Positions 1 through 46,928 of a DNA stretch of 64,000 nt are shown here, one piece after another. Origin of the DNA: Callorhinchus milii (taxonomy: Eukaryota); the NCBI RefSeq assembly GCF_018977255.1, contig NW_024704742.1, positions 32,118,001 through 32,182,000 of the forward strand, written 5' to 3'. Every line of letters starts with the position of its first letter. Position 1 is the stretch's first letter. Under the pieces are notes generated by a model. The model did not search any database and was not told where the DNA came from. It saw only the letters and a list, made by a program, of their open reading frames with translations. The translations under genes were made by a program, and so were the position numbers.

Positions 1-3000
1 CTCAACAATCATAATAATGATCCTTGCATTTAATTGCTTTTAAAGTTTTCAAAGTGCTTCACTTTGCTGTCAAGTGTAGGATGCTATCATACAGAAATAG
101 CCAAAACATCTTCCACAACTGCACAGGCTGTCTTAAAAAGTCAAATTGAATGCCTGTAATTAGGCAGCAGCAACAATACATCAAAGTCTGGAGATACTGT
201 ATTTTAAAGTCTGAGATCCATTGAATAAAGGTTACTGATATACTTTTAACTTGAAATAGGCACTAATATGTAAAGGATGTATATTGATGGAACTAAGAAA
301 TCTTGTATTATCCTGATAAGGGATTTAAATGTGTAGAGCTCGTGAATAATTATATACCTAGTGGTATGACTCAGGGTTGGTTTAGAAGGAGATAGAAAAT
401 GTAAATGGAGAAACAGAAAACCAATCCAATTCATTGTCTCAACTGCTATAATTTTACAGCCTCCCAATCTTGCCCCATTTTTTTCCCTGCCACTCCTAAA
501 TGTGGTGACTTTCTGGGATGCATTTCTATGGGTGGTATCCATCATCTAGTAACTTGCCTAAGTGATCATTCTTCATGTACGATCCTTAACAGTGAGTGTC
601 TGCAGCATTTGACCAAGGGAGCAAAATAGATCATTTTGGTTCTTTTCCCACCCAATATCCATGCGCACTTTCAGCAGTGTTAATAATGCGACAGGAGGTG
701 ATAAGAGTATAGTGTTTACTTTATAAAACAAACAGTAAAGCTCACTATCTATAATTAACTTTGACATAAAACAATACAATAATAATGACACAGATATAGG
801 AAACAAACACGTGTCCAGACACTGTTCCTTTCTCCAGACCAAAGGAGTAGTACTGACGATACAGGTACAACAACACATATCCAGGTACTGTTTCATACTC
901 CAGACTAAACAGTAGACCTGGGATCACAACTTGACATACACTGGAGAGATCAGCCCCTGGAAATACCCTGAGAGACAACTGACTCTTGTAATACCAACAC
1001 TAATCAGGGACTGGTGATCGGTAAACCCTTGGACCCAACAGTCATACCCACCAATATTCATTCAACAATGGGAACAGCAAATCACAAAGAGTGGCTCCGG
1101 TAAACTCAACAGACACAACGAACTGTTAGCCCAGACCTAACTCATACTGCCTAACCTGACTCCTGGGTTTCCCTGGAGCAACTACTACTACTGTTATTAC
1201 TTCTCTGCTTAGCAAACAGAACCCAAACCACATTACCCACTATTCCCCCTCTTTCACTTTTAATGGTCACTTTCTTATTGGAGGTAAATTCCCTCACCCT
1301 GTAGATACAGTAGAATTGATATCGATTCCATTTGGGAAGTGTGCTGACCTTCTACGCAACTCTATTTCCAAGTTACATCTTTCTTTTACTTGTTTCCAAC
1401 TCCACCTATACCCTTATCACAGAGATAGCCCCCACCCTTTGCATCTGCTTTTCACAGACAGCGATATAGACAACTTCTGGGCAGCCTTCCACAGCCTGCG
1501 TGTTCCTCAGCCTTGAGGCAGGTGTCTGAGGCTGCAGCACTTTTCTTTCTGTGGTCCAATATTCTTACATCTATGTTCAAGGTCCCGATTGGTCATTATC
1601 TCAGAGAAGTGAACATCTTTCCAGGAAAATATGAAATGTAATCAGAAGCTGACCTCAGCCCATCCAGCAAAGCTACTTTTAACTATTTAACTATCAAATC
1701 TTCTGGAACATTCGGTTACTGTTTGAAATATACCAATGTATCCCGAGGTGATAGTCAATATATTTCAACAGCACAGGTCATGGGATATAAATCGGAAACA
1801 AATATCCTGACTTATTTTTGCTCAGGAATATGGAAGCCATTTGTAGCACTCAATTTTGTTGTGGATGACGCAACTTAATGGTAGGTACTCTACAAGCGGG
1901 ACAATTATCCACTGAGACAACGAAGGTGCCCATCTCTGCAATAGGCTATTCATGACAGAAGGTTGTAGGTCTTTGCTGAGTGAGCTGATTTCAGCCATGG
2001 CGGTTATTGAGGTGCCACAATTGACCTCAACACCATTGTGTCAGGGAGCAGGAAATCAATCAGTATTCCTGCTACTGATCACTCTCCAAAGTCTTAAAAT
2101 TATCATGGAGCAACATATCCTATATTAAACGCCAGTTTAAACAATTAGAATTGCACATGCCAGCACATAAATTATTAAATAAGGTCTGTATAGAGACAGA
2201 TAAATTCAGCAGACTGGAGCCAGAGGAAATAAATTCCTCAAAAAGTGCCAAAGGTCAGTAGGTTACTCAGCAACAGAGATTAGAATAAGAAGACAGAATC
2301 CTAAAGGAAGGTGATAATGTTCCAGCCTCATACTAAGTGCATGACCTATAACCTAAAGTATGTTTGATGGTTACAAAGGGATGAGAAATATGTAGAGACT
2401 TAAGTCAAAGAGCTCAGGACCAGGAGTTTCTAGAGATTGAAACAGTAAATTGTCACTCCATCTTACATTGGGAGCTAACAAGCTTTCTATAGGATTTGGA
2501 ACAAAAAGGGAATAAGATTAAAATAATAAGAAACAGATTGTTGTATTTGTTTAAAGTACAAACATTCGGGTTGAAAGCTAGTTTGACTAATGTACTTTTC
2601 CAAAATTCTCCTTGGTCTCAAAACTTATTATGTTTGCACCCGTAGTATTTACTTCAAAGTGTAGCTTCAAAGTGTAATGTTTCATTTTTCAATAATAGGT
2701 GAATCATCTGTCTGCATTTCATGTTTTGAGAGTCATATTTTAATTCCTTTGGCAGTTAATCAGATTTTACCAGGTGACATACATATCACTTTACACAGGT
2801 GGGGCTCTGGCCTAAAATTATCATGGTCTTGGCTTTTGGACCATTGTCTTAAAAGTTATAAAATTGCACAGAATTTTGTAAAGTTCTTTAATTCAATATG
2901 AAAAGCTTTGTTTTCTACAATACTCCAAAACACCATTAAGCAAAACAAAATTAAAACTGAATATAAGAATTGTTTTTTTGTTTCCACTTGTCTCCTATGC

Positions 3001-3845
3001 CTGTCTGTTGTTTAAAATATGTTGAGCAGAAGAACCCATTAGTCAAGTTAGACCTAGTTGTAGGGACTTGCATTCATTAGTGAGGATTGAAGATAAGAGG
3101 CCACCCAGTACACTCTGCGAGAGAGCGATCCATATCGTGGGTGTACACATAAGGGTGATAGAACCGTCTCAAGAGATATTTATTGGAAAGGAATGCATGC
3201 ACTTTCCCTGGAGGAAAACATCCTGCTTACCTAATTCCGGAAAGCAATGGGGACGGGTTGACAAGAGCCAAGACTTGGGGGCCCCAGAGCGTGTGTAGGG
3301 GTAACTGCTGGAGTCTAACCAGCTAAAACCACACAGCTTGCCATTGAAGCACTGCCTGGCAAACGTTCCCGCTGCTTGTCCAGCTCGGACCATCCTACCC
3401 ATTATGGCTTTGGTTCAGAGGGTTAACAGGAACTGAGCGCGAGGATTCCCCGCCCCCAGTGACTGGTCTGCCCTTCCAGGTCCGGCCGATGTGCCATCAT
3501 CAGCCGTGCCCTGGAATAGTGCAAACCCGCCCGGCGCAGGAACCGGACTGCAGGGACCGCCACACAGCGTTCTGACATCCCGTCGCCAAACACGTCACGT
3601 TAAGCTTTACGGAGACCCCACTTCACCTCCATCCCAAGGAGGATAACTCTAGATTATTATTATCATTATCATTATTTGCACGTTCACGTTAAAATTTTAA
3701 AGATGTAATAAAGCGGGAAAATTGCATTTTGATTTGATCGGATTGGATTTGTAATAAAGGCACCTGACTGGCACTTTGTGTTGCAGTCGCTGTGGCGCAA
3801 ACCTGACACCAAACAGCAGCCTTGAGCTCTCTCCTGCTCCACTGC

Positions 3846-4173
3846 AGACAGACAGTCAGACAGACAGACAGTCAGTCAATCAGACAGTCAGTCAGTCAGA
3901 CAGTCAGTCAATCAGACAGACAGTCAGTCAGTCAATCAGACAGACAGACAGTCAGTCAGTCAGTCAATCAGACAGACAGACAGACAGTCAGTCAGACAGA
4001 CAGTCAATCAGACAGTCAGTCAGTCAGTCAGACAGTCAGTCAATCAGACAGACAGTCAGTCAGTCAATCAGACAGACAGACAGTCAGTCAGTCAGTCAAT
4101 CAGACAGTCAGTCAGTCAGACAGTCAGTCAATCAGACAGAAGAGGATCTGTCAGACAGACAGTCAGACAGACA
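3846..4173. repeat. Compound (CAGA/CAGT/CAAT)n tetranucleotide satellite
   Basis: Directly visible tandem 4-mers with an internally duplicated block. Confidence 0.95.
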
Positions 4174-4490
4174 GAGGATCTTGCGCAGTGCGTTGCTGGG
4201 CGACGACGTCACAACGCCTCCAAGTGACGACGCCACAAAGGGTCGTTGCCGTGGGAACGGCGGCTCAGAGCGGAACGTGAGCACGACAGAGACGGACGGA
4301 GGGAGAGAGAGAGAGAGGGAGAGGGAGAGGGGAGGGGGCGCCTCGCGGCCAATGGAGCAGCTACAGTTTGCGGCAGTGCTGTCTGCGCCACTGAGAGCTG
4401 AGAGCTGAGCCGAGCCTCGAGGCCGCCCTCCCGCATTGCACCCGCACGATGCGCTGCAAGTTTCAGTTGTAAAATACAGCCTCGTGCGGA

Positions 4491-4530
4491 ATATATATAT
4501 ATATATATAGATAGATAGATAGATATAGAT
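4491..4530. repeat. (AT)n(AGAT)n microsatellite
   Basis: Directly visible, inside the CpG island upstream of the MATCAP2 ATG. Confidence 0.95.
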
Positions 4531-4758
4531 GACATATGATTATTTATTATAGATGCATAGGATTTCCAAAGAGTGCACCGGTGCCTCCACGCTGTCCCGG
4601 GCGAGTCAGAGAGGCGCTGTCGTTATCGCTGTCTGAACGAAAACCGTCTGTGCCCTCCGGACTGCGGGGGAGGGGTGGGTGGGTGGGGGCCGAGGAGGGG
4701 GCGGGAGGGGGACCGACCTGGCGGACTGGACCGTGTGCAGTGCCGGAGTTTGCTGGGG

Positions 4759-4783
4759 ATGCTGGAGTCAATTCGAGTGACCG
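4759..4783 (+). CDS. MATCAP2: MATCAP2/KIAA0895 coding exon 1 (MLESIRVT + first base of E)
   Basis: ATG CTG GAG TCA ATT CGA GTG ACC G|GTACGT. Matches the vertebrate KIAA0895 N-terminus MLESIRVTEKL as I recall it. In-frame upstream TAG at 4558-4560. Splices in phase 1 to exon 2 and lies in a CpG island. Confidence 0.93.
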
Positions 4784-5511
4784 GTACGTGCTTTTCTTCG
4801 CCACACGTTGTCTGCAGAAACCGCACCTCTCGGTGTGTTGTGAAAGGTCCTTCTCGTCGTCGTCCCCCGTCCCCCCCACAAAATGTCACTGGGGGGGGGG
4901 GGGGTCGAGGCGAGTTGTGGCTTATCTGCTCCCATTCAATCTCCAGAGCACTGGGGGTTCGCCCCCCCCTCTCCCCCCCACCCCCGACGCATTGCAGCTG
5001 CAGTCGTGTGTGTGTGTGTGTGTTTTTTTGTGTGTGTGTGTGGTAAAAATTTTTTTTAGCATTAAATCTCTCTCTCGTGGCTCGAACATAACGTGTTTAT
5101 TCAAGTAGGAGATGTTTAGTAATATTTTCAGGGATGTGCAATAGGACACCCCCCCCCTCCTCCCCCCCTCCCCCCCCCCTCCCCTCCCCCCGAACTTGGA
5201 CTCATTTCGTAATGCATATACCTTTTTTTTAAAAAAACAACTCCCCAAATCAGAGCAATGTTATTGACTGGTTGATGCTGAATGATTGATTCAACCAGGA
5301 GACTGGGTTTGAGGAGTGCACTTGTTGTGATAATAATAATAATAATAATAATAATCCAGAATATTCTGGAGTTTTGATTTGATTTACATTTGAATGATCG
5401 GAGGGTATCTTAATTGCAGAGCCTTCCCTGCCCCTGGGGTTTTGGTGAAATGAAGTCCATGGTGGGCTGTTGGTTTGTTGTACGTGGTCTGTGAGAGCAA
5501 TGGGCTTACGT

Positions 5512-5840
5512 GGAGTCCTGTAGCTCGGTGGTTAGAGCGCTCGCTCTGCAAGCGAGAGACCTGAGTTCAATTCCAGGCAGAGGGCGAAACCTTGGGCAAG
5601 TTTCCTTACTCCACACAGAGCCTAATAATAATAATCCCTCCAAAAAAGCAAAAACAATAATAAATTGGTCGTTTTCGATCCACGACTGTTTGTGGGACAT
5701 CGCTGTGCGCCATTGGCTGCCGCGTTCGCCCACAAATATACAGTCAATTCACTTTACAGTGTGTTCTGTGAAGCGCTTTGGGACGTCCTCCCGACGTGAA
5801 AAGCGCTATATCAAATGCGAGGATTAGTATTATTATTATT
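5512..5840 (+). mobile_element. tRNA(Ala)-derived SINE, short young subfamily, full length
   Basis: A box TAGCTCGGTGG, B box GAGTTCAATTCC, CTCGC-loop-GCGAG anticodon-like arm, L2-type 3' stem-loop, (ATT)n tail. Many near-identical copies in the window. Confidence 0.9.
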
Positions 5841-6754
5841 AATGGACTGAATGACACTTTCTCATTCCGTGCATTGTGATTCATACGATTCTTGCCAATT
5901 TGTGCAATCCTGCTGACTGAATTGCATTTAAGTTTTTTTTAAAAAAACTAATGTCATTTTAAAGGGAAATTACCTACATAGAAAGAAGTGTTTGACAAAC
6001 TAGTCCTCATTTGCTTACATTCAACCTGTTGTATCCTCGTGGATCATATCGGATTGCATCATCATATCAGTTGTGCGTGATATTATTTTGGTGAACATAA
6101 TGGCTGGTTCTTGGCTCTCAAGATGGGAAATTCTCTGATTTGCTGCTCTTTTTGTGTACCACTTCGACCGAGGCCTAAAATTCCACCTAGTCTTAGCCTC
6201 CTGCGGGGAAGGAAGTAAGCCGAGTCTCCTTGAAGTTGAGCTGGCTGCAAGGCTGTAATCAAGGCAATCCTCTGTGGTGGTCTGAGTCGTCCAGTTCATG
6301 AGCCAGACAGGTCTGCAAATCTCTAGGGCGCTGCTGGTGACAGACCAACCAGCCTGGCTTGTCAGTAGGATTCGGAGGGGCAAACTAGTCACTGGGAGCA
6401 GGGAGTATTCACACTCAACCTGTTAACCCTGCAAGTCAAAGACCAAAACACACAGTCAATTCACTTTACAGTATATCCTGTGAAGCACTTTGAGATATCT
6501 CAAAGACGTGATAAGGCGCTATATCCAATGCAAGGCTTATTATTATTAAATGTGGGTCGTGGCTCAACAAGTAGTGGGATGTTTGCCACACAGTGTTTCA
6601 GTGGCAAGCTAGCTGGTACCCCAACACGCTCACTGGTTTCCCTAAACATTGGTTCTTGCCAACCTGTTCATATTCTCTGAATTTAGGTATACATGGTGCA
6701 TCTCTCCAGGGAGAGCACCCGTTTTATTATGGGCACAGGGAAATTTCCATGTAT

Positions 6755-7460
6755 AACAACAACAACAGAATTATATTTGCATAGCGCCTTTCACGTCGGG
6801 AGGACGTCCCAAGGCCGCTGGACAGTCAGCTGAGGGTCGGGATTGGGAGGGTGGAGGACGGGGGGAAGGAGGGTGATCAAAGGCACGGTTGAAGAGGAGG
6901 GTCTTGAGATGGGTCTTGAAGATGGCAAGGGAGGGATTGAGGTAGAGGGACTGCGGGATGGAATTCCAGAGGGTGGGGGCAGAGTAGCTGAAGGCTCGCC
7001 AGCCAATGGTGGGGCAGGTGCGGTGGGGGACATGAAGCTGGCCAGAACCCGCTGAGCGGAGGGAGCGGACAGATTGGTAGGGGGTCAGGTGGTCGTAAGG
7101 GAAAGCAAGGCTATCGAGGGCTTTGAAAGCGAAGACCAGGATCTTGAACTGTTTCCTCTATGTGATGTGAAGCTAATGGAGTTGGATGAGGATGGGAGTG
7201 ATGGAGCCTGGTGCAGGAGAGGACATGGGATGCTGAGTTCTGGATGATCTGCAGCCGATGGAGGGAGGAGTTGGGAGCTGCCGACAAGCAGGGTGTTTGC
7301 ATGGTCAAGCCTAATGTTATGAATGCGTGTATGAGGGTTTCAGTGCCCTGTGGTGTGAGACTGGCAGAGCCGAGCGATGTTGCAGATGTGGAGGAAGGCA
7401 GAGCGGGTCATAGCATGGATGTGGGGTAGAAAGGATAGTTGAGGGTCAAACAAGACGCCA
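6755..7460 (-). mobile_element. L2-clade LINE 3' fragment
   Basis: Degenerate ORF2 end (LHRLQIIQNSA...), 3' stem-loop and (GTT)n tail. Confidence 0.85.
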
Positions 7461-9826
7461 TGTATAAGTGGCATGCATACGTGGAACTCTGTATGGTTGG
7501 ATACTCTTAGTGATGCGTTTCTGCATGCGTTCGACACCTGGATGACCATTTTGCTTTGAAGTATAAGATCTGTGGAAAAATCTTAAATTCAAGTCTTAAT
7601 ATTGGAAGCTGATTTTTTTTAAGAACTACAAAAGACTTCCAAATAAAACTAAACGTATGAATTTTTGCAACTCTGCATAATCCAAAACTTTGAAAATAAA
7701 ATAGTCTTGCAGGCCAAAACTGGATGGAATTTGAGCCTATGAAGTTGAGATTCTTTATGAGTAAACACTTGGGTATGGTCCTGGGAGGCCATCTGATAGC
7801 CTGGAAATAAATTTTGTATCTTTCTAATCATGATTGTGTAAAACAAGAATACTGAAGGGACAGTTGAACCTCACTACAGTTGCCTTTCCCAAACTCATTG
7901 CACTCTGTGGAATGTACTTTTATGATTAAACTCCTGGATCCTGATTTATTTTCTGGAGCTTAAATGGTTAAGGTGCCTATAAAGAGAGGTAAGTAGGCAG
8001 TCATGCGTGCTACAAGTCAACCAACAGACTGATATAATGGACTAGACTCTACACTGATGTAGAAACATTCGCTACATTTTGGCTTGTTTCTACTACACCT
8101 TTGTTTTTGTGATGTTTTATATGTAAACAGTGAATTGTGAAAGTAAAAGGCAGAATGAATGAATCAGATTCTGTGAGGCGAGTGATTGTTTTGAGAAGTG
8201 CAATGATCTGCAATATCAATAACTATTTGTGAATGTTATTGTGACCAAAATGGATAAAATTGAAATTGTGTGATTAGAAACTGTCTGTGTGGTGACCTAC
8301 TTAATGTCTGTATTTTAATAACTTCAGAGACTTCTTGGAAATTGAATGTCAATTAGGGATAAAATTCAAGTGGAGTAAGAACTTCAACATATCTGTTTCA
8401 GACCATCTCAATTGTGTGCAATGTTTTACTTACTGTATAAGCAATCAACTCCATTCAGTAGTGTATTCTGTATCAACAAATCACCTGTGTTTGATGAGGT
8501 ACATGGATTGCAATCTTGTTTTGGCTTCCAATATATTTTAGAGGTTAGTTTATAGTTTCCAGAGATGATTTATCTGGGACCAGACTTGTTCCATTCATTA
8601 AGTATGTCCATATCTGCCAGAGAGGATAGAAGAATCACTGAGGATTCAATTCATTGAAAAGAGGTGCAAAATATGGTTACTCTTGTTTGGTCTTTAATGT
8701 TTTGTAAAATATATCAAAGAGCTGTTAAAATGGAAGAATTAGAATTACAACAACAATTCACAAAAATTTGTACTGATATAGTGCCTTCCAGCAGAGTGCT
8801 TAACTGACGGAGCCTGATGACTATTAAAGATTAGTTTGTCAGGAAAAAAAATTAAAATTAAAGTTTTGACTTGCAAATTACAAAACCATTTGGAAACACT
8901 GACATCTGGAGCTTCTATCTAATTTATTGTTTCCAAATCAGATTTAAATCCTGGAACTGATATTTTAAAAGTCAACATAGATGTTCACATTCCTTCATTG
9001 TTATATTAATTAGGAGTGATTGTTCACTCCTGCTTTGAAAATGAGAAAACAATTGCTGCTATTAACATTGGGAACATGCTTTTCATAGAAAACAGTATAA
9101 GCTGCAGCAACTCCTTTTATGTTGTCACAGAGGACTTGTGATCTCCTTACACAACATAAGGCCTTGTATTGTATTTGCATCTCCATTCTTTTCTCCAGTC
9201 ATCTGTTAATCTGTGTCTTGGAAACCAGGAGGGTTAGCAAAAGAATCGGGAGAATGAAAGAAATGTCTTAATTTGGAGTGTTGTTAAGGTAGTGTATTCA
9301 TTTGCCACAAGTGGTTATTGAGGCTGGATCAATTGAATTATTTAAAAGGAAACTGGATAAGCAGCCAAACAGTAAAATGGAATGAGCCAGAAAGCAGGAT
9401 TAATAATAAAAGGTGAAAGAAAATCCGGTACTAGTGGCAGATACATCGGTTAAATTGGCTTCTCTGCTGAAAATTTATTTTTTAAACTTTTGGAGTACTA
9501 TTGTTTTACATTTTAGAGCTTCATTTAATTTCTACATGAGCGTTCGCCAAATGTTTTTGTACTTTTTTTGTTGCTGGTTTTCTATTTTTATTGGAACAGA
9601 ATTGAAGGACTTGATATGAAGATGTTGGTTACCAGCATTACTGTGATTCATTGCCATTGGTCAATCCAGCAGCCAGCTTTATAAGTTTTAAAGAACTTAT
9701 TCTCTTTCCACTGCCTGAAACCCTTGTGCTTGTATCGATCGCTTACATTTTACAACCAGCTGTTGGCTGCTTCAAGACTGTTGATGAGATTCAGTAGGAA
9801 TGCCTGCAATCCGTTTTGTAAAAAGG

Positions 9827-10139
9827 AATAATAATAATAATAATCCTTGCATTTGATATAGCGCTTTTCACGTCGGAAGGACGTCCCAAAGCGCTTCACA
9901 GAACACACTGTAAAGTGAATTGACTGTAAATTTGTGGGCGAACGCGGCAGCCAATTGCGCACAGCAATGTCCCACAAACAGTCGTAGATTGAAAATGCCC
10001 AATTTATTATTGTTTTTGGAGGGATTATTATTAGGCGTGTGGAGTAAGGAAACTTGCCCAAGGTTTCGCCCTGCCTGGAATTGAACTCAGGTCTCTCACT
10101 TGCAAAGCAAGTGCTCTAACCACTAAGCTACAGGACTCC
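9827..10139 (-). mobile_element. tRNA-derived SINE, short young subfamily
   Basis: Reverse-complement match to the 5512 copy from head to (ATT)n tail. Confidence 0.9.
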
Positions 10140-10214
10140 AGGGGGAATGAAGACAGGATGGTGTCACTTGATGCTTCTCATTGTTTTAAGCAAAGTCTCG
10201 GAGCCCAATTTGTA

Positions 10215-11120
10215 TAACAACAACAATTTGCACTTATATAGAGCCCTCCCTGCAGGGAGCATCTCAGAGCACTTAACAGTGGTGGAGCCTGACTCCGATC
10301 CAGGGGGAGGTGTCCGAAAGCACGGTCGAAGAGGAAGGTTTACAGGCAGGACTTGAAAAGGGGGAGAAAGGGGGCAAGGCGGAGGGATTGAGGGAGAGTG
10401 TTCCAGAGTTTTGGGAGCATAGTGGCTGAAAACGTGACCTCCGATGGTGGGGCGGAGGGTGCGAGGGATGAGCAGGAGGTCAGTGCCAGTCGAGTGGAGG
10501 CACCGAGTGGTGGATTGGGGAGTGAGGAGGTCAGAAAGGTAGGGAGGTGCCCAGGGAGTGGATGGATTTCATTCCCGGGGGCTCGAACCGGACGCCTAGA
10601 TTGCACAATGGTTCGGTGAATCTGAGGGAGAGATCAGGAAGGTTGAGGAGTTTAGATCTGCAGGAGTGAAGAAGTTGATGGGATCCAAATAGTATGGACT
10701 CCATCTTGTCCACATTCAGCTGCAAGAAGTTTGCACTCATCCAGGCCCTGATGTCAGGCAGACAAGCTGAAAAACATCGGCGGACCTGGAGTTGGTACTG
10801 GAGGAGGCAAAGTAGATTTGTGTGGAAGTTTACCCCGTGTCTGCGGATGACATTGCCCAGAGGGAGCATGTAGACAAGGAAAAGAGGGCCAAGGATGGAA
10901 CCCTCGGGTATCCTGCAGGTGACCGAGCAGGGGTGTTAGGAGAAACCATTTGCCGAAGTGAAACGGAGGCATTTGGTTAAGTAGGACTCGAACCATGCGA
11001 GTGCGGTCCCACTAAGGTGAATGAGGGAGGAGAGGCAGTGGAGGAATATGATGTGGTAGACTGTGTTGAACACGCCAGAGAGATCCAGGAGGACGAGGAG
11101 GCAGAGGGAGCCCCGGTCAC
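10215..11120 (-). mobile_element. L2-clade LINE fragment (second subfamily), internally deleted
   Basis: [29 protein letters not shown]; (GTT)n tail at ~10215. An inverted homologous piece lies at ~11190-11410 (+). Confidence 0.8.
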
Positions 11121-11431
11121 AGATAGGGAGGATGTTGCTTGTGACTTTGACAAGCTGTCTCCGTTCTGTGGGCAGGATGAAAACCAGATAATCTCCTCAC
11201 TTCCCAATCCACCACCCGGCGCCTCCAATCGTCTCTCGCACCCTCCGCCCCACCATTGGAGGTCGTGCTTTCAGCCACGACACACCAAATCTCTGAAACA
11301 CTCTCCCTCAATCCCCCATCTTGCCCCTTTTATAAATCCAGCCTGAAAACCTTCCTCTTCGACCATGCTTACAGCCACCTCTACTGCCCCCCCCCCCCCC
11401 CCCACGGCTCAGAGTCAGGCTTATTTTTTCA

Positions 11432-11765
11432 AAATAATAATAATCCTCGCATTTGACATAGTGCTTTATCATGTCTTCGAGACGTCTCAAAGTGCTTTGC
11501 GAATATACTGTAAAGTGAATTGACTGCAATATTTTGTGGGCGAAACGTGGCAGCCAATTGCGCACAGCAATGTTCTACAAACAGTCATGGATTGAGTAAC
11601 CAAATCATCATTTATTTATTTATTTATGGAGGAATCGACTAACAACTGGATTCCTACTTACTGCTAGGTAAACAGACACGTGTGTGGGGTAAGAAAATTT
11701 GGCATAAGGTTTCACCCTGCCAGGGAATCAAACGCGGGTCCTCTCGCTTGCGAGGCGATTGCACT
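11432..11765 (-). mobile_element. tRNA-derived SINE, older long subfamily
   Basis: Has the TGTTTACCTAGCAGTAAGTAGGAA central segment and a TCGAA-loop tail. Confidence 0.85.
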
Positions 11766-11978
11766 GCTGTGTAAGAAGCAAAGTGGGCACTTTCTTTCAC
11801 AACCTATGTGCACCACTCACATCACGAGCTGGTCTCTGTTAATTCAGCGCAATGGCTCAGTGGCAAGAGAGGAGAGCAGAGATGAAAGAGGGAAGCTTTG
11901 TCGCCGTTTGAGGAGAGTTTGTGCAGTCAGGTGCTTCTTGAGAGGGGGGGGGGGGAAAGCACCCGGCTCCGAGGGCAC

Positions 11979-12818
11979 TCACTGCGCAAGGGACGCTGCC
12001 TCCTGTTGGGCCTCTTTATATTGGGTGTTCCATGTTTTGGGGTCTTGGTTGTCATGCATCTTTGCCACAAACTCCAGCACTTTCATCTTGGAGGTCTCTC
12101 TGAAAGCTCGGGCGCCCCAGCGGAATTCATACTCCACCGGATCCGTGTGAGCCACTCGGCAGTACTCCAGGTACCGCTGCCGGACGAACTCCTCCGTGAC
12201 CAGTTTCTTCACGTCGCCGAAATCGTCGTGCCTCTCCGCGGGGTCGACCCGCAGCCTCTTCAGCGCGTGCCAAAGCAGGGAGTCCTTCACCGCGTTGCCC
12301 TTCATGAAGATGATGGAGAGGATCACCAGCAGCAGGCCCGTCTTCGGGGTGGCGGGGCCCCAGTTCATGCGGTCGCCCTCCCGCCTCGGCAGCCGGTTCA
12401 CCAGAATGTAGGCGTGGTTCTTCGTGTCGATCTCCACCAGCTCCATCCCGAAAACCTGCCGGAAGGTCCGGGCGGTCCGCCGGATGATCTCCGAGTAGAT
12501 GGACCTGTACTCCTTCAGCACGTTCTTCGTGATGTCCTTGCGCTTGACCGGCACTTTCCGCTGCTCCATGATCAGCACGTACTGGACCACCTCGCTCACC
12601 TTCCGGTCGACCACGGCGGCCGGGGTCAGTTTGGACAGGTGGCGCTGAACCTGCGAGGCGGTCGGAGTCTGGGAGCGGCTGCTGCTGCTGCTGCTGCCGC
12701 CGGCGGCCGCGGCCACGGCCTCCTCCTCCTCCTCGTCGTCGTCGTCCTCCGGGTCCAGCTCTTCAGCCTGCAGGCTCGGCCGGCCGGCGTGGCGGAGCGA
12801 GGCGCTCGCCCGCGGCAT
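11979..12818 (-). CDS. NSMCE3: Single-exon MAGE-homology-domain protein, NSMCE3 (NSE3/MAGEG1/necdin-like 2)-like SMC5/6 subunit, 279 aa
   Basis: Uninterrupted ORF with both MAGE winged-helix halves: VVQYVLIMEQRKVPVKRKDI, VFGMELVEID, PKTGLLLVILSIIFMKGN, LWHALKRL, HDDFGDVKKLVTEEFVRQRYLEY, YEFRWGARAFRETSKMKVLEFVAK. Acidic, poly-Ala and poly-Ser N-terminus; A at -3 of the ATG. The MAGE family call is firm; NSMCE3 orthology is inferred from the single-MAGE state of non-mammalian vertebrates. Confidence 0.92.
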   Translation of the reverse strand: MPRASASLRHAGRPSLQAEELDPEDDDDEEEEEAVAAAAGGSSSSSSRSQTPTASQVQRHLSKLTPAAVVDRKVSEVVQYVLIMEQRKVPVKRKDITKNVLKEYRSIYSEIIRRTARTFRQVFGMELVEIDTKNHAYILVNRLPRREGDRMNWGPATPKTGLLLVILSIIFMKGNAVKDSLLWHALKRLRVDPAERHDDFGDVKKLVTEEFVRQRYLEYCRVAHTDPVEYEFRWGARAFRETSKMKVLEFVAKMHDNQDPKTWNTQYKEAQQEAASLAQ

Positions 12819-13040
12819 CGTCAGCGGGGGGGAGGAAAAGCGAAGCCTGGCTCCGCTAGGCCCTGCCGCGCAGCCGCAGTGCTGGCTCGCCAGCAGCGCC
12901 GCCGGCGGTTGGATGCGCGCGCAGGTTCCGCCCGCGCGGCGCGGCGCGGCTGGGGGGGGGGGGGGGCGGGGCTGACGTCCTGACGTACTTCAGGTCCTTT
13001 TGGTCGCAGCCACAGAACGGGCACTACAGGCTCGAGAGGG
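12819..13040 (-). promoter_or_regulatory. GC-rich promoter / 5' UTR of the nested NSMCE3 gene
   Basis: Very CpG-rich. Palindromic TGCGCGCGCA (12914-12923, NRF1-like), G-tract plus GGGGCGGGGC GC box (~12952-12972), two TGACGT CRE half-sites (~12973-12987). Ends abruptly at an (AAT)n tract. Confidence 0.7.
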
Positions 13041-13044
13041 GCTG

Positions 13045-13272
13045 AATAATAATAATCATAATAATCATAACAATAATCATAATAATAATCATAACAATAA
13101 TCATAATAATAATAATCATAATAATAACCATAATAATAACCATAATAATCATAATCACAATAATCATAATAATAATCATAATAATAATCATAATAATAAT
13201 CATAATAATAATCATAACAATCATAATAATCACAATAATAATCATAATCATCATAATAATAATAATAATAAT
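13045..13272. repeat. Interrupted (AAT/CAT/AAC)n trinucleotide microsatellite, expanded SINE tail
   Basis: Directly visible and continuous with the (ATT)n tail of the adjacent minus-strand SINE. Confidence 0.95.
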
Positions 13273-13584
13273 ATTAATCTTTGCATTTGATATAGCGCTT
13301 TTCACGTCGGGAGGACGTCCTGAAGCGCTTCACAGAACACACTGTAAAGTGAATTGACTGTATATTTGTGGGCGAACGCGGCGGCCAATTGCGCACAGCA
13401 ATGTCCCACAAACAGTCGTAGATTGAAAATGACCAATTTATTATTGTTTTTGGTTTTGGAGGTATTATTATTAGGCTCTGTGTGGAGTAAGGAAACTTGC
13501 CCAAGGTTTCGCCCTCTGCCTGGAATTGAACTCGGGTCTCTCACTTGCAAAGCGAGTGCTCTAACCACTGAGCTACAGGACTCC
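13273..13584 (-). mobile_element. tRNA-derived SINE, short young subfamily, full length
   Basis: Near-identical to the 5512 copy; tail expanded into the adjacent microsatellite. Confidence 0.9.
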
Positions 13585-14319
13585 AGAATGGCCCTACATA
13601 TTGTTCCTAATGCTACTCCTAATACCTCTCTGTGCGCATCTTTCTTTTAAACTATTACTTAATAATAATAGTAAGATTCATTTGGTCATTTCAATCCACG
13701 CCTGTTTGTGTGGGGTGGGGTGGTGGGTGGGGGGGAAAACGCAATTGGCTGCCGCGTTTCGCCCGCAAAATACACGGTCCAATCCACTTTGCAGTCTATT
13801 CTGGGAAGCGCTTTGGGACGTCTCGAAGACGCGATGAGGCGCTATATCAAATGCAAGGATCATTGTTATCGATTCCCGTCTCTTCAGCGTTCTGTATGAA
13901 AAATATTTTGTGACCTCAGTTATGACCATCTTAGTTCTGAATTTAAGCATTTCCCCCCCCATGTACCTGACCCCTCTACCAAAGGGTATAGTAGTTCACT
14001 ATATAACCTTTCAAATTCTTTATTGTTTTAAATGCCTCAATCAAATTTGAGTTAGTATGCCTGACAGACTTTTAATTCACAATTCCGAGGAGCATTCGGG
14101 TTTGTCTAAATCGTATTTATATGCTACAGTAAATCTTTGTCAGACACATCTGTCACCAAACCCTGGTTAGCTTTGGTTTACCTCCATCTGTATTATCTTC
14201 ATTCAAATAAACACATTTTCTCTTTCAACGTTATATTCAGTGTTCTACGGGAAACTGAGAAACCCAGTGTTGTAATTGGAAATAGTTACACTGTTTTATT
14301 GAATTTACCCCCTTGTTTA

Positions 14320-14603
14320 GAAGCAGAGCACAAGGCATGCGATTCAGGAGGGGGATAAATTCAAAACGAATCTGCGGTAACACTATTTGTGTTCAATGTA
14401 TGGAACAGGCTCCCTAGGGAGACGGTGGAGGCAGAAAGTGTTAATTCTTTCAACAGCAAATTAGATTTATTTTAGGAAATAATATCGTGGGATACAGTAT
14501 ATAGTTTGGGACGTGACACGTGCATGTGACTGCCAGGATGGTGGAAGGCGAACTGGATGGACCTTGTTTTTCTTTCGTGTAGCAATTCTTATGTTCTTAT
14601 GTT
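14320..14603 (+). mobile_element. CR1-clade LINE 3' end
   Basis: WNRLP..VEA.SVNSF-type remnant ending in TTCTTATGTTCTTATGTT. Other CR1 remnants at ~9220-9370, ~34310-34590, ~46350-46562, ~51215-51500, ~55665-55850 and ~61085-61145. Confidence 0.7.
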
Positions 14604-14770
14604 GGGGATTTGACCTATCCCAAAATGGACAACATTGGAATGGAAATAGTGCCTCTCCAATCCAATTTGTATGATGATCTTGCTGTTTGGAAGGTGGTTG
14701 TGTGCTCAGGATTGAGATGAAAATATCCATGTAAATTAATTGTACCTTTCCATTTTTGTTTTCCATGCAG

Positions 14771-15438
14771 AAAAGCTTCGCTGGCCAGAGGTAGAGCTCA
14801 CCAAGAAGTCCATACTGCTGAATCCTACTGGAAAAGAATATACAAGCCAAACTGGGTTCCAAGAAGTTTCAGTCAGTATTCTCAAAGAAATCTTCAATGG
14901 AACCAATGGCTACAATGTTTTATTGCACTCAAAAGGAGAGAAAAAACACTTGTCCTCCAGCCTTCATAAGAAGCATAGGAAATCCAGCAAGCCATCAGCT
15001 GTCTTGCGGAGTAAAGAACGCCGAGCCCCCAGCGCCCCTCTTCCATTGGTGGGCAAGGAGTGGTACCTTGGTAACCGGTGCACTCCCCTGATTGTGGGAA
15101 GTCTAGTTTCCAGCACTATGAAATTCCCTTGCAGCATATCTGTAATAGGAAGTGGCATTGGGCTGTCCCAGAGACCTAAAAGCAAGATAAAAAGGCTGTA
15201 TTTTACAAGTCTGCAGAAGTCCAAGCCCACGGTCGGCCACGTTCAAGTGAGGGACAGCGAAGGCTCTGTTCGTCGGCAGTGCATACTGAGTGCCATCAAA
15301 CCTTCAAACGTGGAAAAGGAACGGATCAAATTTTTTAAGTCTGACTTCACCTACAATCCTCAGTTTGAGTATGCTAATCCTGTTTCACCCCACGTGTTGG
15401 CAAGGCACAGTAATGCTTCCGATACATTTCTTATTCAG
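14771..15438 (+). CDS. MATCAP2: MATCAP2 coding exon 2
   Basis: Acceptor ttttccatgcag|AA AAG CTT CGC TGG CCA GAG (E-KLRWPE). Contains CILSAIKPSNVEKERIKFFKSDFTYNPQFEYANP. Donor CAG|GTACAG. 668 nt. Confidence 0.96.
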
Positions 15439-17179
15439 GTACAGCAATGTTTGATTGAATGGGTTTTAAAAAAATGTTGTAGTTATTGATTTGTATGAAA
15501 TTGCTGTTAAAGCAAAATTTATTTTATTGAGTTCTGAAATGCAGAATTCTATTTAATGACTGTAAATTTTAATTTAAACATATGGGTGGAAAAATCTGAC
15601 AATTTATTACAGATTTGATAAACATTTATTCCCAGCAATTACCTGTGTTGGCGATCCTCCTCTTCCTCTCCGCTCCCCCACCCGCCCCCCAAAAAAAAAT
15701 CCTTGCCAGCAGGACCCAGTCATGAATAGATGACAAAATACAATGCTTCTTAAGTGACAAAGAAATGTAGTGCAAGGGAAAAATACGTTCAACAGGTAAC
15801 TTTTTTTTTAAAAAAGCATGGGGTTAAATCTGGATTTGGAGTTGTTATCCTTGAAAAAGTCATCAAATGATGGTGTAGTGAACAGTGCTTCTAAAATGGC
15901 TCACTCTCAGTGAGGCTGATGTAGCCCCAAATTAACTATCAACTATTAAAGTATAGTTGGATTTGCACTGAAGAGAATCTAAATAATGTATAAAGAATAA
16001 AGTATACTTTAATAGTTGTACTTAAATTTATGTTAAGATCTTTTAAGTTATGAAAAATAATTTGTTGTAGTTGTTGTATTCTGTGATGTGGCATTATACT
16101 GTGACTTCCTGAGTGGACTGGAGTAGGACAGATGTTTTATGCGATGTCCTGGCCAACAATGTCACTCACTCCATGTCTGTTTTTTGGGTCATTGCTATGA
16201 GCAACTGGCTGCTTGCTGCATTTCGCCCACAAAATTCACAATCAATCCACTTTGCAGGATATCCTGTGAAGCATTTTGAGATGTCTCAATGACATGATTG
16301 TAGTAATAATCCTTGCATTTGATATAGCACTTTTCAGGTCTTCTGGACATCTCAAAGCGCTTCACAGAATATAGTGTAAAGTTAATTGACTGTATATTTG
16401 CGGGCAAAAATACAGGCGCTATATCAAATGCAAGGATTATTATTAATAAAGTGGATCTAACCATTACAAAAAGTAAAATATTGGATGCTTCAGGATCACA
16501 CAGTGTGGATAACAGTCCAAATGGTGCTTAATTCGATGTTCACTGAAAAGTCTTGCTTACCCTTCCACCTGGTGTGACCTGGGACTTGCGCCAATTACTT
16601 GTTATAATTAACAAGCTATAAGTAACTAAGATGCCAATTTGCATTATATCTCTTGGCAAGACTGACATAATGATGGTAAGTATCTGTTTTCTGTTAACAG
16701 GAACAAGAAAAGGAGAAGTATTTTTGAATGGTCTTGGTTGTTCATTTTCTTAAACGCATCTCTCTCTCTCTCTCTCTCTCTCTTTTCCTCTCCGCCTTAA
16801 TCACGGTGAAGCTTTTTCAGCAGAGGTCAGTAAAAATCAGTAGTGCAAGCAAATCAAAATACGAATGGGAAAGTACCAGAAAAAAATACCAAAGAGAGCA
16901 AACATAGTTTGTTAGCATGTTCAAGACCTTATAAGTCACTCAACCATCACACTACAATTGACACTATCTTCCTAAATTCTGGGATCATTTCAATTGAAAT
17001 AAACTGAAACTGGAAAAATAACTTGCTTCTAGTATTCTTCCCCCTCAACTTTTCATTGTTAATAATGACAATTCATTCTTATAATATCCTTTGTATTAGT
17101 TAGGACATATTGTTTTGGACACCACTAACCTAGGACATATCGTTTTTGCCACCTCTATTTACTAACTGTGAATGGTTGA

Positions 17180-23013: not shown

Positions 23014-23157
23014 GCTGTGAGGATAATGAAGAGGGCACTCCGGAAATACGGCAGCTATGAGAAATTTGAACAAGTGACAGGAGGCAGTCTACTATCCAAG
23101 AGCCGTATCTGGTATTTTGTGAAGAAATACATGGAAAAGGAGGACTGTCTGGGTGAC
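23014..23157 (+). CDS. MATCAP2: MATCAP2 coding exon 3
   Basis: Polypyrimidine tract + tag| then AVRIMKRALRKYGSYEKFEQVTGGSLLSKSRIWYFVKKYMEKEDCLGD |GTAAGC. 144 nt, phase 0-0. Confidence 0.96.
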
Positions 23158-25393
23158 GTAAGCTCTACGTGCAAACTGAGTTTGTTTCTTTTTGATAGTC
23201 ACTTGACACTAATACTGTATGTATAAAGTTTCTTTTCGGTTGGTAAATCTTGCTCAGATCCAACATTTTTCATGTTCTTAGCTTAAAACTACTGTTTTAC
23301 AATTTAAAATAACGCAGAAATTTGAAAAACAACCTTTAATTAAAAACAGCCTTAATTTGAAAGGCAATTTTCTGTGGGTTTTTTTCTTGTTGTCGTGGAA
23401 AATCAACCTCCAAATTCTATTTGAATCTAAGATTTTTTTTCCCCAAATTCCACAAAATCTTAAATTTATACAGTGCTCTTAAGCCTAAAAACATGAGAAA
23501 TTGTGGACCTAGATTAAGGATATTCTTGGTGTCTGGAGCTCAGGACCACTCCAGAGCCATTGGTGGAGATGTCCAGATTATTAATGCTCTGTGTTGGGGA
23601 AGGGAATATTAGACGGGGGGGGGGGGGGTGATAGACTCGAGGAGTTGAAAAGATGAGTCAAATACCTCTAAGGGGAGGGGAGAAATGCAGGGGAAAATAT
23701 CAAAGGAAACCAGTGGCAAAAATTAAAACGATCACACTATATAATAAGAATAATTCTTGCAAGAATGACATGATAAGGCACCATATCAAATGCATTTATT
23801 TAGCGCCTTTCATGCAGGGTAGAGTCCCGGAGCGCTTGACAGAGGCAGCCTGACACAGAACCGAAGGGGAGGTGACGTCTCAAAGCGCTTCATAGGATAT
23901 ACAGTAAAGTGGATTGATTGTATCTTTTGGATCAAACTATAAACAATTTGTATGTGTGCAGGTCTTATGGTAATTTCAGGCACCTGCTGTAAACTCAGAA
24001 TGGTTAGTGTTATATTTGGTATTTTGAAGACTCATGTCGAGTACCTGATTTGTAGGTAGCTGGCTACTGGTTCAAGTCCCAGGCTGCAGGCTGGTTGAAC
24101 TCAGCAATTTGCCAGTCTGACCTTATTATAGTGTATACTTTGCTCCCCTTGCAGGTCATCTATTGAAATGAAAGTTGTTGAAAAATAATTGGAATTCAAA
24201 TCTTTCCTGTAGCATCCTTTGGGATTCAGTCAGTGGAAGCTTTTGTATTTGCTCACATTTTTTCCAGCACGTTGCAATCTGATAAAGTGGGAGCAGGCTG
24301 AGGAATGTGAGGGATGGCTAAATATGGGCAAACATTTTTTGAAAAATATACATTAAAAAAAACAAATACAAGGAACCGAAAGGAGACACTTATTTAGTAG
24401 AACTGGTTTTATCCCATTATAACAAATGTTTGCCAAGAGGAACATCTATTTTTGCATAGCAAAGAAATACGTAAACTGTTTTCTTCTTTTTGTTGCTAAG
24501 GTCTACATTATGTCACGCAATGTAAAAACACGGAGCTTTTGTTTTTCTGTCCAAACTAAATTGGTAAGACAATGAAAGCAGATAGGGTTGTTGGCAGAAT
24601 TATTGTTGTTTATACTTGTAAAGCTATATCTAGGGCCAATAGAAAATTATGGAAATTTTTGCCCAAAATTAGCCATTTCCCAGAGTTTATTTCCTGGCAC
24701 CCAGTCATTTTAAGCATGAATACTTATGTTGTATTAGTTGGTTAGCCTAAACCCTTTCCCAGCATAAGTGATTGGAATAAATATGTTTCAGAAATAGATT
24801 TTTTTAATAAACCCCAGAAATATAGATGTATATTTACATTATAACAAAGTACAGAGTACAAAGCTCTGGAAAAGGGAATCCACCCTATCTACATCAACCC
24901 TACCAACCTGGCCATTCGCTTCACTCAGCAAACATCGACCTGCTTCATGTCCCTCACACTATCCACACCACCATCAGAAGGCAAGCTTTCAGCTATCATT
25001 CCTCGCTCTCTAGAATGCCATCCAGACTCCCTCAGTTTGCTACCTCCCTCAGCTTATTTGAGGTCTGTTTCAAGGCATACCTCTTTGATTGTGCTTTTGG
25101 TCATCTTTCTCCTCTCCATCTGTTTTGCCTCCATGCCTGGCTTGGCTGCCCAGCCAGCGGTATAAGTGCTTCGAGACTTCTTACCAATGTGAAAGACACT
25201 ATATTAATGTAAACTGTATTCTATTTGTCTGGTTGACTGGATACAATTGGTGTGGTTTTGAGATAGGCGCTGCAGTATTATTGGTGTTTCCACCACATGG
25301 TAAAGTTTACTTGTTACAGTCTTGAATAAAATGATAGTTGGTTGCCTCAGATGTTCTTCTACCACACCAATTCCAATATGTTTCCTTTTGCAG

Positions 25394-25526
25394 ATTGCAG
25401 TTCATCTGACAGATGATCTGCTCTCACGTGCATCCATGACTATAGTGAATGGACGCCCAACTCTGACAATCAACGTGTCAACTGCTCGAGAGCACTGGCT
25501 GGAGGGAATGCTGAGACACGAGATAG
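25394..25526 (+). CDS. MATCAP2: MATCAP2 coding exon 4 (HEI of the HExxxH zinc motif)
   Basis: ttttgcag| then IAVHLTDDLLSRASMTIVNGRPTLTINVSTAREHWLEGMLRHEI-G |GTGTGA. 133 nt. Confidence 0.96.
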
Positions 25527-26227
25527 GTGTGAGAAATCCCATTGGTCTTTCGTAGCTCAGATTAAGGTGTAGTTTGGAAGTAGATGAGACAGCGCTACGA
25601 TCTGTAGGTCAACACACTTAACCCTTGAAGTTTGTTCATTGGTGTTTCTTCCAGCAATGCCAAGTTCAACTTTATTCATCAGGGAAAAGGTAAAAATGAA
25701 GATGGGGATGGGAAGAGGTGCAGGGGTTTCAATTAACAATTCGTAATTAGATCATAATTACCTGGATACTCTGGAGGTGAGTCCCTCAACGCTGTTCTTA
25801 ATGCTTTGTGTGAAACCAGGCTGGACATTCTACTGTCAGGTAGTGACATTATGGCTACTTTGAATTTTATTCAGTAAAATGCAAACTGGCAGTAATTAAG
25901 GAACCAGTTTTATGGAGGTCAGCCTAAAGAACTGTGGGGGTAGAGGATGAGTTTGCGTTTGACACATTGATGGTAAATCCTAATTGATTTCAATTAAATT
26001 TTCTAATTTTAGTTTAGTACAGAAAGCTGTGGGGAAGGTCCACTTCCCAACTAGGAACATTTGCATTCAGAATGGCAGCTGAAGTAAAGTCATCTTGCAT
26101 TTTAGTTAGGGTAGAGTCTAGGTAGAGCAAAATACCTCTGTAAATGCGGGAGACAATATGCCCCATTTTTCAGCCAGGAATTTTAAATGTTTGTTTTCAA
26201 CATGAAAATCTTGGGCTCACTGTGCAG

Positions 26228-26533
26228 GTACCCACTATCTTCGAGGTTTGAACAACAACATGCAGCCCTGGTGTAACTGGAATGGTCGTAAGAAGCATGC
26301 ACTTAAACCAGTGAACCCAACTGAAGAGGGACTGGCCAGCATCCACAGTGTCCTGTTTCGCAAGGACCCTTTCCTCTGGAGGGCAGCTCTCCTCTACTAC
26401 ACAGTCTACAAAGCCAGTTTTATGTCCTTCAGTGAGCTCTTCCGAGATATTAGCAAGTTTGTGAAGGACCCAAACACTAGGTGGGATTACTGCGTGCGAG
26501 CTAAGCGTGGTCAGACTGACACATTACAAGCAG
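26228..26533 (+). CDS. MATCAP2: MATCAP2 coding exon 5
   Basis: tgtgcag|GT ACC CAC TAT. Encodes THYLRGLNN...NPTEEGLASIHSVLFRKDPFLWRAALLYY...RWDYCVRAKRGQTDTLQA-G |GTAGAC. 306 nt. Confidence 0.96.
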
Positions 26534-28902: not shown

Positions 28903-29000
28903 GTTGTTTTAGCAAAGATCAAGTATATCTAGATGGCATTCTTAAAATTTTGAGACACAGAAGTAGCATCAACTTCCAGCTTTTAACAGCACTGGGAAAG
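28903..29000 (+). CDS. MATCAP2: MATCAP2 coding exon 6
   Basis: ttcttctttag|GT TGT TTT AGC AAA GAT CAA. Encodes (G)CFSKDQVYLDGILKILRHRSSINFQLLTALGK |GTCAGT. 98 nt; too short to appear in the ORF track. Confidence 0.95.
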
Positions 29001-30390: not shown

Positions 30391-30549
30391 GTTTCTTATG
30401 AAGATATAGAGAAGCTGAAGAGTATTGCTATGTTACACCATGTGCAAATACCTCACTTCCTGCGGGACCAGACTCGATACAAGGACGAGTTGAATAAGAT
30501 CATGGAAGTGAATGGGTTGACGGACAGTGAACTCCAGTTATTGGTCTAA
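30391..30549 (+). CDS. MATCAP2: MATCAP2 terminal coding exon 7
   Basis: tttctgtcag| then VSYEDIEKLKSIAMLHHVQIPHFLRDQTRYKDELNKIMEVNGLTDSELQLLV-TAA. Total CDS 25+668+144+133+306+98+159 = 1533 nt (510 aa). Confidence 0.95.
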   Translation, partial: VSYEDIEKLKSIAMLHHVQIPHFLRDQTRYKDELNKIMEVNGLTDSELQLLV

Positions 30550-36626: not shown

Positions 36627-36900
36627 GTAATAATAATAATAATAATAATAATTCTTGCATTTGATATAGCGCTTTTCACGTCGGGAGGACGTCCCAAAGC
36701 GCTTCACAGAACGCACTGTAAAGTGAATTGACTGTATATTTGTGGGCGAACGCGGCAGCCAATTGCGCACAGCAATGTCCCACAAACAGTCGTAGATTGA
36801 AAATGACCAATTTATTATTGTTTTTTGTTTTGGAGGAATTAGGCGTGTGGAGTAAGGAAACTTGCCCAAGGTTTCGCCCTGCCTGGAATTGAACTCAGGT
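36627..36900 (-). mobile_element. Young short-subfamily SINE, 5'-truncated, abutting the tail of an older Deu-domain SINE
   Basis: Near-identical to the 9827 and 13273 copies. Confidence 0.88.
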
Positions 36901-38583: not shown

Positions 38584-38844
38584 AAGACTTTCTGCCTGAG
38601 CGACAGTACTGGTGACTGTGGCTGGTTTAGGATTGCGTTCTTAATTCGCATATTTCTGATCGTTGACCACGACCTTCTAGCAGTAGCAATCGGCGTGTGC
38701 TCAGCTAAACTTGTCAAAGTGAGGATATTCAATAAGGCGGGGGGGGGGGGGGGAAATAGTTGGGATTATAGTATAAGAATCATTAGTATTGATCATGTAG
38801 TGAATAGATGAATTAAGTAGAATACAATGCCATCCTGACCATCT

Positions 38845-46876: not shown

Positions 46877-46928
46877 TGGTCACTGTGACATTAGGGGGCT
46901 TTCTAGTCCCTAGAGTCAGTATAGAATT

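Follow-up and report, generated by a model that had tools for sequence, protein, structure and literature searches.

A 64,000-nucleotide stretch of the Callorhinchus milii genome (NCBI RefSeq assembly GCF_018977255.1, contig NW_024704742.1, positions 32,118,001 to 32,182,000 of the forward strand; hereafter the window, whose numbering is used below unless a contig is named) carries an intronless gene for NSMCE3, the MAGE-type NSE3 subunit of the SMC5/6 complex. It lies antisense within the ~10 kb first coding intron of MATCAP2, also named KIAA0895 (ATG at 4759, exon 2 from 14770). We consider it probable (roughly 0.65) that a spliced NSMCE3 mRNA was retroposed into this intron on the Callorhinchus branch, that the copy was retained under selection and that the parent was lost. 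In detail, the fully spliced mRNA of an ancestral gene with ~11 exons would have been reverse-transcribed, presumably by the enzyme of a long interspersed nuclear element (LINE), and the copy would have been inserted antisense into MATCAP2 intron 1 after the split from sharks and rays. The copy, with transcription driven by a CpG island at its own 5' end, would have stayed under purifying selection, and the intron-bearing parent would then have disappeared, leaving an 'orphan retrogene'. On balance we favour the view that the sole MAGE/NSE3 gene of this chimaera is such an orphan retrogene and is independent of the mammalian NSMCE3 retrogene.

Identity of the NSMCE3 open reading frame

The coding sequence occupies 11979..12818 on the minus strand and is an intact ATG-to-stop open reading frame (ORF) of 840 nt including the stop, with 279 codons and no intron. 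The encoded protein matches the MAGE homology domain of Pfam (PF01454, E 1.2e-31) over profile positions 1-206 of 207, so the domain is full-length. Its top solved-structure match is 7dg2_C, a 'MAGE domain-containing protein' (E 1.5e-84). Human NSMCE3 (9lwi_E) is matched at E 2.6e-72, the query aligning to residues 22-288 of the 304-residue chain, and MAGE-A and MAGE-B structures at 1e-31 to 1e-39 only. All named homologues are NSMCE3 or necdin-like 2. Since the alignment with human NSMCE3 spans residues 9-273 of the query and the start MPR... is common to the window protein and its shark, ray and bony-fish orthologues, the whole protein is contained in one exon. The intact single-exon MAGE ORF reported in the initial annotation is thus borne out by the frame itself and by the domain and structure matches.

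A long open frame alone is weak evidence, since the opposite strand of the same GC-rich stretch also carries an ORF of 309 aa; judging by the matches listed above, it is homology rather than the open frame that makes a chance origin of the NSMCE3 call improbable. The window protein is 79-80% identical to shark orthologues (54-80% across orthologues) and keeps all 63 columns that are invariant in our alignment of these proteins (A1). It has a derived YC motif (Cys220; the residue is S, A or N in sharks, rays, gar, coelacanth and frog) and an extra N-terminal insertion of ~19 acidic, Ala- and Ser-rich residues which elasmobranch orthologues lack. We consider the ORF most likely to be the functional NSMCE3 gene of C. 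milii. By its sequence, the product presumably acts in SMC5/6 through binding of NSE1 and NSE4, as in other organisms.

A near-identical protein of 282 aa, XP_007887901.1 ('non-structural maintenance of chromosomes element 3 homolog [Callorhinchus milii]'), is encoded on another contig, C2. The Callorhinchus NSMCE3 gene is therefore already part of the public annotation, and the retrogene reading is the new part. Our literature search, which covered sources other than subscription journals, found no publication on an intronless NSMCE3 or MAGE gene in Callorhinchus or other cartilaginous fishes.

Cover by RNA-like contigs, sequence constraint and phylogeny

Contigs of four sequencing runs were compared with positions 4000-16000 of the window: X1, X2 and X4, which come from three studies and comprise 24-73 Mb of contigs each, and X11, which is genome-sized DNA. 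Contigs of X1, X2 and X4 are collinear with the genome from 11647/11850 to 12884/12908, are unspliced and give zero cover in the bins of unique intron at 7609-8811. X11 covers 30/30 bins, with a depth of 5.7-9.1 over the ORF and of 8.5-10.9 over unique intron. The cover by X11 shows the intronless ORF to be present in independent genomic DNA, and it also occurs in runs that behave like transcriptomes. The RNA-like contigs define a minimum 5' untranslated region (UTR) at 12819..12908 (minus strand, collinear to 12884-12908) and a 3' UTR at 11647..11978 (minus strand). The DNA contig also stops at 12909, beside a microsatellite, hence no transcription start is read from contig ends.

Both single-base variants within the coding sequence are synonymous: one, at 12792, distinguishes two copies of the locus in the assembly (described below), and the other, at 12237, is found in all three RNA-like runs. 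Length differences of 3, 6 and 6 nt, all multiples of three, fall within the acidic/Ala/Ser tract. The 332 nt of 3' UTR hold six variants. Small as these numbers are, the variation at NSMCE3 fits purifying selection. The GC-rich tract encoding the acidic/Ala/Ser insertion (12667-12758) is itself length-variable, with +3 and +6 nt on C2 and -6 nt in one RNA-like contig.

A phylogenetic tree was built from 26 NSMCE3 proteins picked to represent groups among 134. Within the chondrichthyan clade, which is supported at 100/98, the window protein branches as the sister of the nine elasmobranch rows taken together (97/95). The branch leading to it is ordinary in length, 0.22 compared with path lengths of 0.16-0.24 for sharks. 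On this tree the window protein appears orthologous to elasmobranch NSMCE3, conserved and not accelerated.

A processed pseudogene free of constraint, or an artefact of assembly or cDNA contamination, is a very improbable explanation of the ORF. GC-rich frames do stay open by chance, as the ORF on the opposite strand illustrates, and the block containing the gene is duplicated in the assembly. Yet neither the identity to sharks nor the keeping of all 63 invariant columns would be expected of an unconstrained copy, and the true decayed fragments found elsewhere in this genome are full of stops. Moreover, the ORF occurs at single-copy-like depth in the independent DNA run as well as in RNA-like contigs of three studies, and it is apparently the only MAGE gene available for an essential complex.

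Ancestral exon structure

A multi-exon ndnl2/nsmce3 gene is described for zebrafish, frog and chicken by Katsura and Satta (PMC3112145), in agreement with the initial annotation, which had named teleosts, frog and chicken. These authors give ~11 exons for zebrafish NDNL2 and coding exons of 64, 80, 95, 80, 43, 63 and 115 nt, in the same phases, for zebrafish, frog, chicken, platypus, opossum and human MAGE-D. They classify the NDNL2 gene of eutherians as a processed gene with a single exon.

Traces of these exons can be recognised in isoform pairs of sharks and rays. The X1 and X2 isoforms of Carcharodon differ by one residue at TSQ|K, the X1 isoform of Hypanus has two additional residues at KRK|D, and the X2 isoform of Heptranchias lacks exactly 36 residues, the gap ending before VSEVV. 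The segment VSEVV...KRK comprises 21 codons, which with one more base matches the size of the conserved 64-nt exon, whose phases are 0 at the start and 1 at the end. Elasmobranchs most likely keep the ancestral introns, as far as can be judged from these protein isoforms.

Using the published exon sizes (PMC3112145) and anchoring them on the 64-nt exon, we placed the ancestral junctions on the Callorhinchus ORF. All eight conserved junctions, from the one before exon 4 (12600/12599) through 12536/5, 12456/5, 12361/0, 12281/0, 12238/7 and 12175/4 to exon 10/11 (12060/59), are seamless. Alignment A1 has no gaps at the junctions, and both RNA-like and DNA contigs are collinear there. Since elasmobranch isoforms differ at conserved junctions, the intronless state of Callorhinchus would be derived.

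Search for an intron-bearing parent

The 991.5-Mb assembly (1762 contigs) was searched in six frames with four queries: the window protein, a shark orthologue, the Pfam MAGE profile and the N-terminal half of the domain, which corresponds to exons 4-7. The window protein matched four places and the shark orthologue the same loci, while the Pfam profile and the N-terminal half matched two places only. Two of the four are full matches, namely the window locus and its copy on C2, and the other two are decayed fragments, L003 and L004. Thus, no other intact MAGE locus is present in the assembly beyond the duplicated block, and none of the four queries found an intron-bearing NSMCE3 parent or an exon-sized relic of one in these 991.5 Mb. 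The suggestion made earlier that the copy may have replaced its parent is supported by these searches.

L003 (1428-1689; C2:83957457-83957718) corresponds to residues 199-279 at 77% nucleotide identity, with one frameshift and a stop. L004 (1308-1758; C5:56845704-56846154) corresponds to approximately residues 164-270, has several stops and deletions and includes ~190 nt of 3' UTR. L003 runs uninterrupted across the positions of junctions 9/10 and 10/11, and L004 across those of 7/8 to 10/11. Both contain the derived YC motif. By these features they are old, 5'-truncated processed copies made in the Callorhinchus lineage. As they are intronless, truncated and share the YC motif, NSMCE3 mRNA was a substrate of retroposition in this lineage. 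We considered the ttttag at the 5' edge of L003 as a splice acceptor or exon boundary and rejected it, as it lies within ancestral exon 9 and in the wrong phase, and as L003 continues without a break across 9/10 and 10/11.

The 3' UTR of L004 is collinear with the window to 11788, and the homology ends ~15 nt past an AATAAA; at the position of this AATAAA the window reads CATAGG. By this comparison 11788 would be the former end of the NSMCE3 mRNA.

The window gene could instead be an extra expressed retrogene beside an intron-bearing parent that is unassembled, too short-exoned or too diverged for a six-frame search. Exons of 43-115 nt are indeed hard targets, the search scores few first-look candidates (2-5), and an assembly in 1762 contigs contains at least one misassembled or duplicated block. 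Still, we find this doubtful: a broken 88-aa fragment at 42-47% identity was found, so that an exon of 32-38 aa at ~80% should be reachable, and the Pfam MAGE and N-terminal queries matched nothing else. The depth of X11 over the ORF, like that over unique intron, leaves no room for a second near-identical copy inflating it.

Duplicated block in the assembly

C2 contains an inverted counterpart of the entire window: identity is 98.9% over positions 1-4174 and 99.4% over 3845-64000, and the 10 kb on each side of the window align at 99.4-99.7%. At least 84 kb containing MATCAP2 and NSMCE3 are therefore present twice on chromosome-scale contigs, in inverted orientation: C1:32108001-32192000, where C1 is the contig of the window, and C2:22055857-22140120. 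The NSMCE3 ORFs of the two copies differ by one synonymous base and by length differences of +3 and +6 nt. This duplication had escaped the initial annotation.

Among 29 compared variants of X11, 12 have the letter of C2 and 17 match neither copy, with one letter per site. Such a mixture of letters, some of C1 type, some of C2 type and some private, with one per site, points to alleles of one locus rather than to fixed paralogues, a reading weakened by the fact that contigs drop variants. It provides a weak hint that a false duplication is likelier than a real one, by about two to one. The two annotated NSMCE3 copies of the assembly are then probably one locus. Whether the duplication is false or real, the C2 copy is not the parent.

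Host gene and genomic location

We identify the host gene as MATCAP2 by its matches to named shark and ray proteins. The translation of 14770-15450 (plus strand) is 68-72% identical to shark and ray proteins named MATCAP2/KIAA0895, and these proteins map to seven plus-strand blocks from 14770-15486 through 30361-30546. Coding exon 1 (4759..4783, plus strand) encodes MLESIRVT (4759-4782) plus 1 nt and is followed by a GTACGT donor; it is surrounded by a CpG-rich stretch (4300-5100, GC 57%, observed/expected CpG ratio, o/e, of 0.81). Coding exon 2 (14770..15486, plus strand, end approximate) contributes from residue 9 on and is placed by homology and by the RNA-like X4 contig, which begins its match exactly at 14770. 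Later plus-strand exons were located by protein matches at 23014-23163, 25394-25552, 26218-26535, 28839-29006 and 30361-30546. The run contigs on 4000-16000 include none that joins MATCAP2 exon 1 to exon 2, so the nesting is derived from homology. NSMCE3 had been placed between MATCAP2 exons beginning at 4759 and 14771; this nesting stands, with exon 2 moved by one base.

NSMCE3 and MATCAP2 were compared for their location in the species found in both match lists. In 12/12 of them (Carcharodon, Chiloscyllium, Megalops cyprinoides, Chanos, Conger, Xyrauchen, Scophthalmus, Lepidogalaxias, Ambystoma, Bufo, Malaclemys and Gopherus) the two genes are on differently sized contigs, and in 0/12 on the same one; in Carcharodon, for example, the contigs are of 9.48 Mb for NSMCE3 and 233 Mb for MATCAP2. 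Because a nested gene must share the contig of MATCAP2, NSMCE3 is apparently not nested in MATCAP2 in these species. The comparison supports a location in the MATCAP2 intron that would be specific to Callorhinchus among the species compared.

These data also bear on another route to an intronless gene, in which recombination between the gene and its own cDNA removed the introns at the original site and a separate DNA-level rearrangement carried the gene into MATCAP2, or in which MATCAP2 intron 1 is the ancestral location and the gene moved in all other species. Loss of all introns with neither a poly(A) tract nor a target-site duplication is equally expected under such a conversion. We nevertheless regard it as improbable: the two genes are on different scaffolds in all 12 species, which comprise two sharks, teleosts, amphibians and turtles, the homology of L004 stops at the mRNA end at 11788, as if only mRNA sequence had been inserted, and an extra, unsupported rearrangement would be needed.

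Retroposition of a spliced mRNA on the Callorhinchus branch accommodates the derived exon state, the new location and the placement in the tree. Together with the parent search, the cover by RNA-like contigs and the conserved protein, they support the earlier proposal of an independent processed copy, convergent with that of mammals. The proposal had assigned the event to a cartilaginous-fish lineage; this holds and can be narrowed to the Callorhinchus branch after its split from elasmobranchs.

Flanks and base composition

Both flanks of the NSMCE3 unit are overwritten by short interspersed nuclear elements (SINEs). A tRNA-related SINE (11433..11765, minus strand) immediately follows the former mRNA end, and a SINE of the same family (13260..13585, minus strand) lies upstream of the gene. 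The upstream flank is abutted by an (AAT)n-like microsatellite (13012..13297, 285 bp), which we read as the expanded tail of the upstream SINE. RNA-like contigs extend into the downstream SINE, whose AATAAA repeats (~11606-11629) may now serve as the poly(A) signal of NSMCE3. Short G-rich repeats flanking the unit were considered as a target-site duplication and rejected as low-complexity chance matches.

The NSMCE3 ORF has a GC content of 64%, a CpG o/e of 0.95 and a GC content at third codon positions (GC3) of 88%, compared with 45%, 0.44 and 50% for MATCAP2 exon 2, in line with the GC/CpG richness relative to the MATCAP2 exons noted at the outset. Unique intron at 7600-9200 has a GC content of 34% and a CpG o/e of 0.11. 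The 5' coding part and the upstream flank form a CpG island (12400..13020, GC 70-75%, CpG o/e 1.0; GC 70% and CpG o/e 1.01 for 12400-13000), which is real by composition. The initial annotation described it as the gene's own CpG-island promoter; the island stands and is the presumed promoter of NSMCE3. Possible reasons for the high GC3 are a hypomethylated CpG island, biased gene conversion or selection acting on an mRNA that lacks introns.

Weighing and dating the proposed insertion

Several points weigh against the origin proposed here. The sequence past the former mRNA end at ~11788 has no A-run, and no direct repeat flanking the NSMCE3 unit is convincing, as had been noted from the start, and with SINEs on both flanks the mechanism of retroposition lacks a direct trace. 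A GC3 of 88% within an intron of 34-40% GC is unexpected for an old insertion and is explained by none of the readings considered. The library type of X1, X2 and X4 is unrecorded ('RNA?'), and contigs give neither strand nor transcript ends. Elasmobranch exon structure was read from isoform pairs and not from gene models. The locations were taken from the longest contig of each protein cluster, with names matched by eye, and some clusters have several members. The parent search is blind to unassembled sequence and uncalibrated in its sensitivity to exons of 21-38 aa. Lastly, Callorhinchus is the only holocephalan compared, which leaves the placement of the insertion in time loose.

The latter point is relevant to an older origin, in which a retrocopy made on the chondrichthyan stem or earlier existed beside its parent, chimaeras lost the parent and elasmobranchs lost the retrocopy. 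Nothing dates the insertion and its hallmarks are fully erased, both of which such an age would accommodate; besides, the stingray Hemitrygon akajei has extra aberrant NSMCE3-like models, so copies arise in elasmobranchs too. This scenario seems unlikely to us: it requires a second loss where a single one would do, the tree simply places the window protein as sister to the whole set of elasmobranch sequences without additional depth, and no shark or ray protein in the match list groups with it.

The two Hemitrygon models, P0108 and P0130, are on the same chromosome as the normal gene. One of them is without the exon-4 region and has unusual substitutions, and they may be copies or pseudogenes.

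Other features of the window

The tRNA-related SINE family, which has an (ATT)n-type tail, is very abundant, with contig depth in the DNA run reaching 10^5. Further copies in the window are located at 5511-5841, 9827-10141, 36628-36900, 46562-46877 and 49188-49505, among others. LINE remnants with long open frames are present at 33099-34300 (minus), 38817-40110 (plus), 48169-48885 (minus), 52823-53401 (minus) and 55921-57082 (plus); RVT_1 exceeds the cut-off at 33887-34300 and falls slightly short of it at 55921-56421. A tandem repeat at 3758-4408, upstream of MATCAP2 exon 1, is open in three plus-strand frames with SQSDRQTV-like translations.

Minus-strand ORFs at 60120-60497 and 62278-63485 resemble what we take to be the C-terminal exons of EEPD1, a label that is unconfirmed. 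On human 7p14, EEPD1 lies next to KIAA0895. No Pfam match was obtained for single MATCAP2 exons or for two of the EEPD1-like ORFs at 60-63.5 kb.

Relation to known systems and implications

In the usual account, vertebrates other than mammals have a single MAGE gene with several exons, and processed copies of it arose as an innovation of mammals. The closest parallel to the Callorhinchus gene is eutherian NSMCE3 (NDNL2/MAGE-G1), which belongs to the same family, is by sequence the same SMC5/6 subunit and also has a single coding exon; it goes back to a MAGE-D-like ancestor with several exons, and PMC3112145 treats it as a processed gene. The Callorhinchus event would be independent of it, as the window protein falls within chondrichthyans and not with tetrapods in the tree. 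Mammals retain an intron-bearing MAGE-D, whereas none was found in the Callorhinchus assembly, and the host site in the MATCAP2 intron is seen only in Callorhinchus among the species compared.

The multi-exon ndnl2/nsmce3 genes of zebrafish, frog, chicken and, presumably, sharks and rays are orthologous to the window gene and share with it the MPR... start and the domain layout. They differ in having ~11 exons with conserved phases, none of whose introns is present in Callorhinchus, and another chromosome context; the window gene also differs by its extra ~19 N-terminal residues.

Orphan retrogenes, that is, retrocopies outliving their parental gene, have been described for mammals, as stated in the accessible part of PMC4772013. 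The Callorhinchus copy resembles them in being intronless, conserved and covered by RNA-like contigs, with no detectable parent. Here the organism is a chimaera and the gene an essential single-copy one, the parent loss being deduced from one assembly.

If our reading is true, a processed copy would have taken over from its own parent, the gene for an essential SMC5/6 subunit, on two or more occasions among vertebrates. This would suggest that MAGE mRNAs are unusually and repeatedly prone to retroposition, for example via germline expression, and would provide a natural experiment on re-promoting an essential gene inside a foreign intron. C. milii NSMCE3 would not be a suitable guide to the ancestral gene structure or synteny. 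With the only MAGE gene of a chimaera processed and relocated, the tendency of MAGE genes to retropose would predate mammals and be independent of them, and an essential housekeeping gene could pass wholly to a retrocopy nested in another gene.

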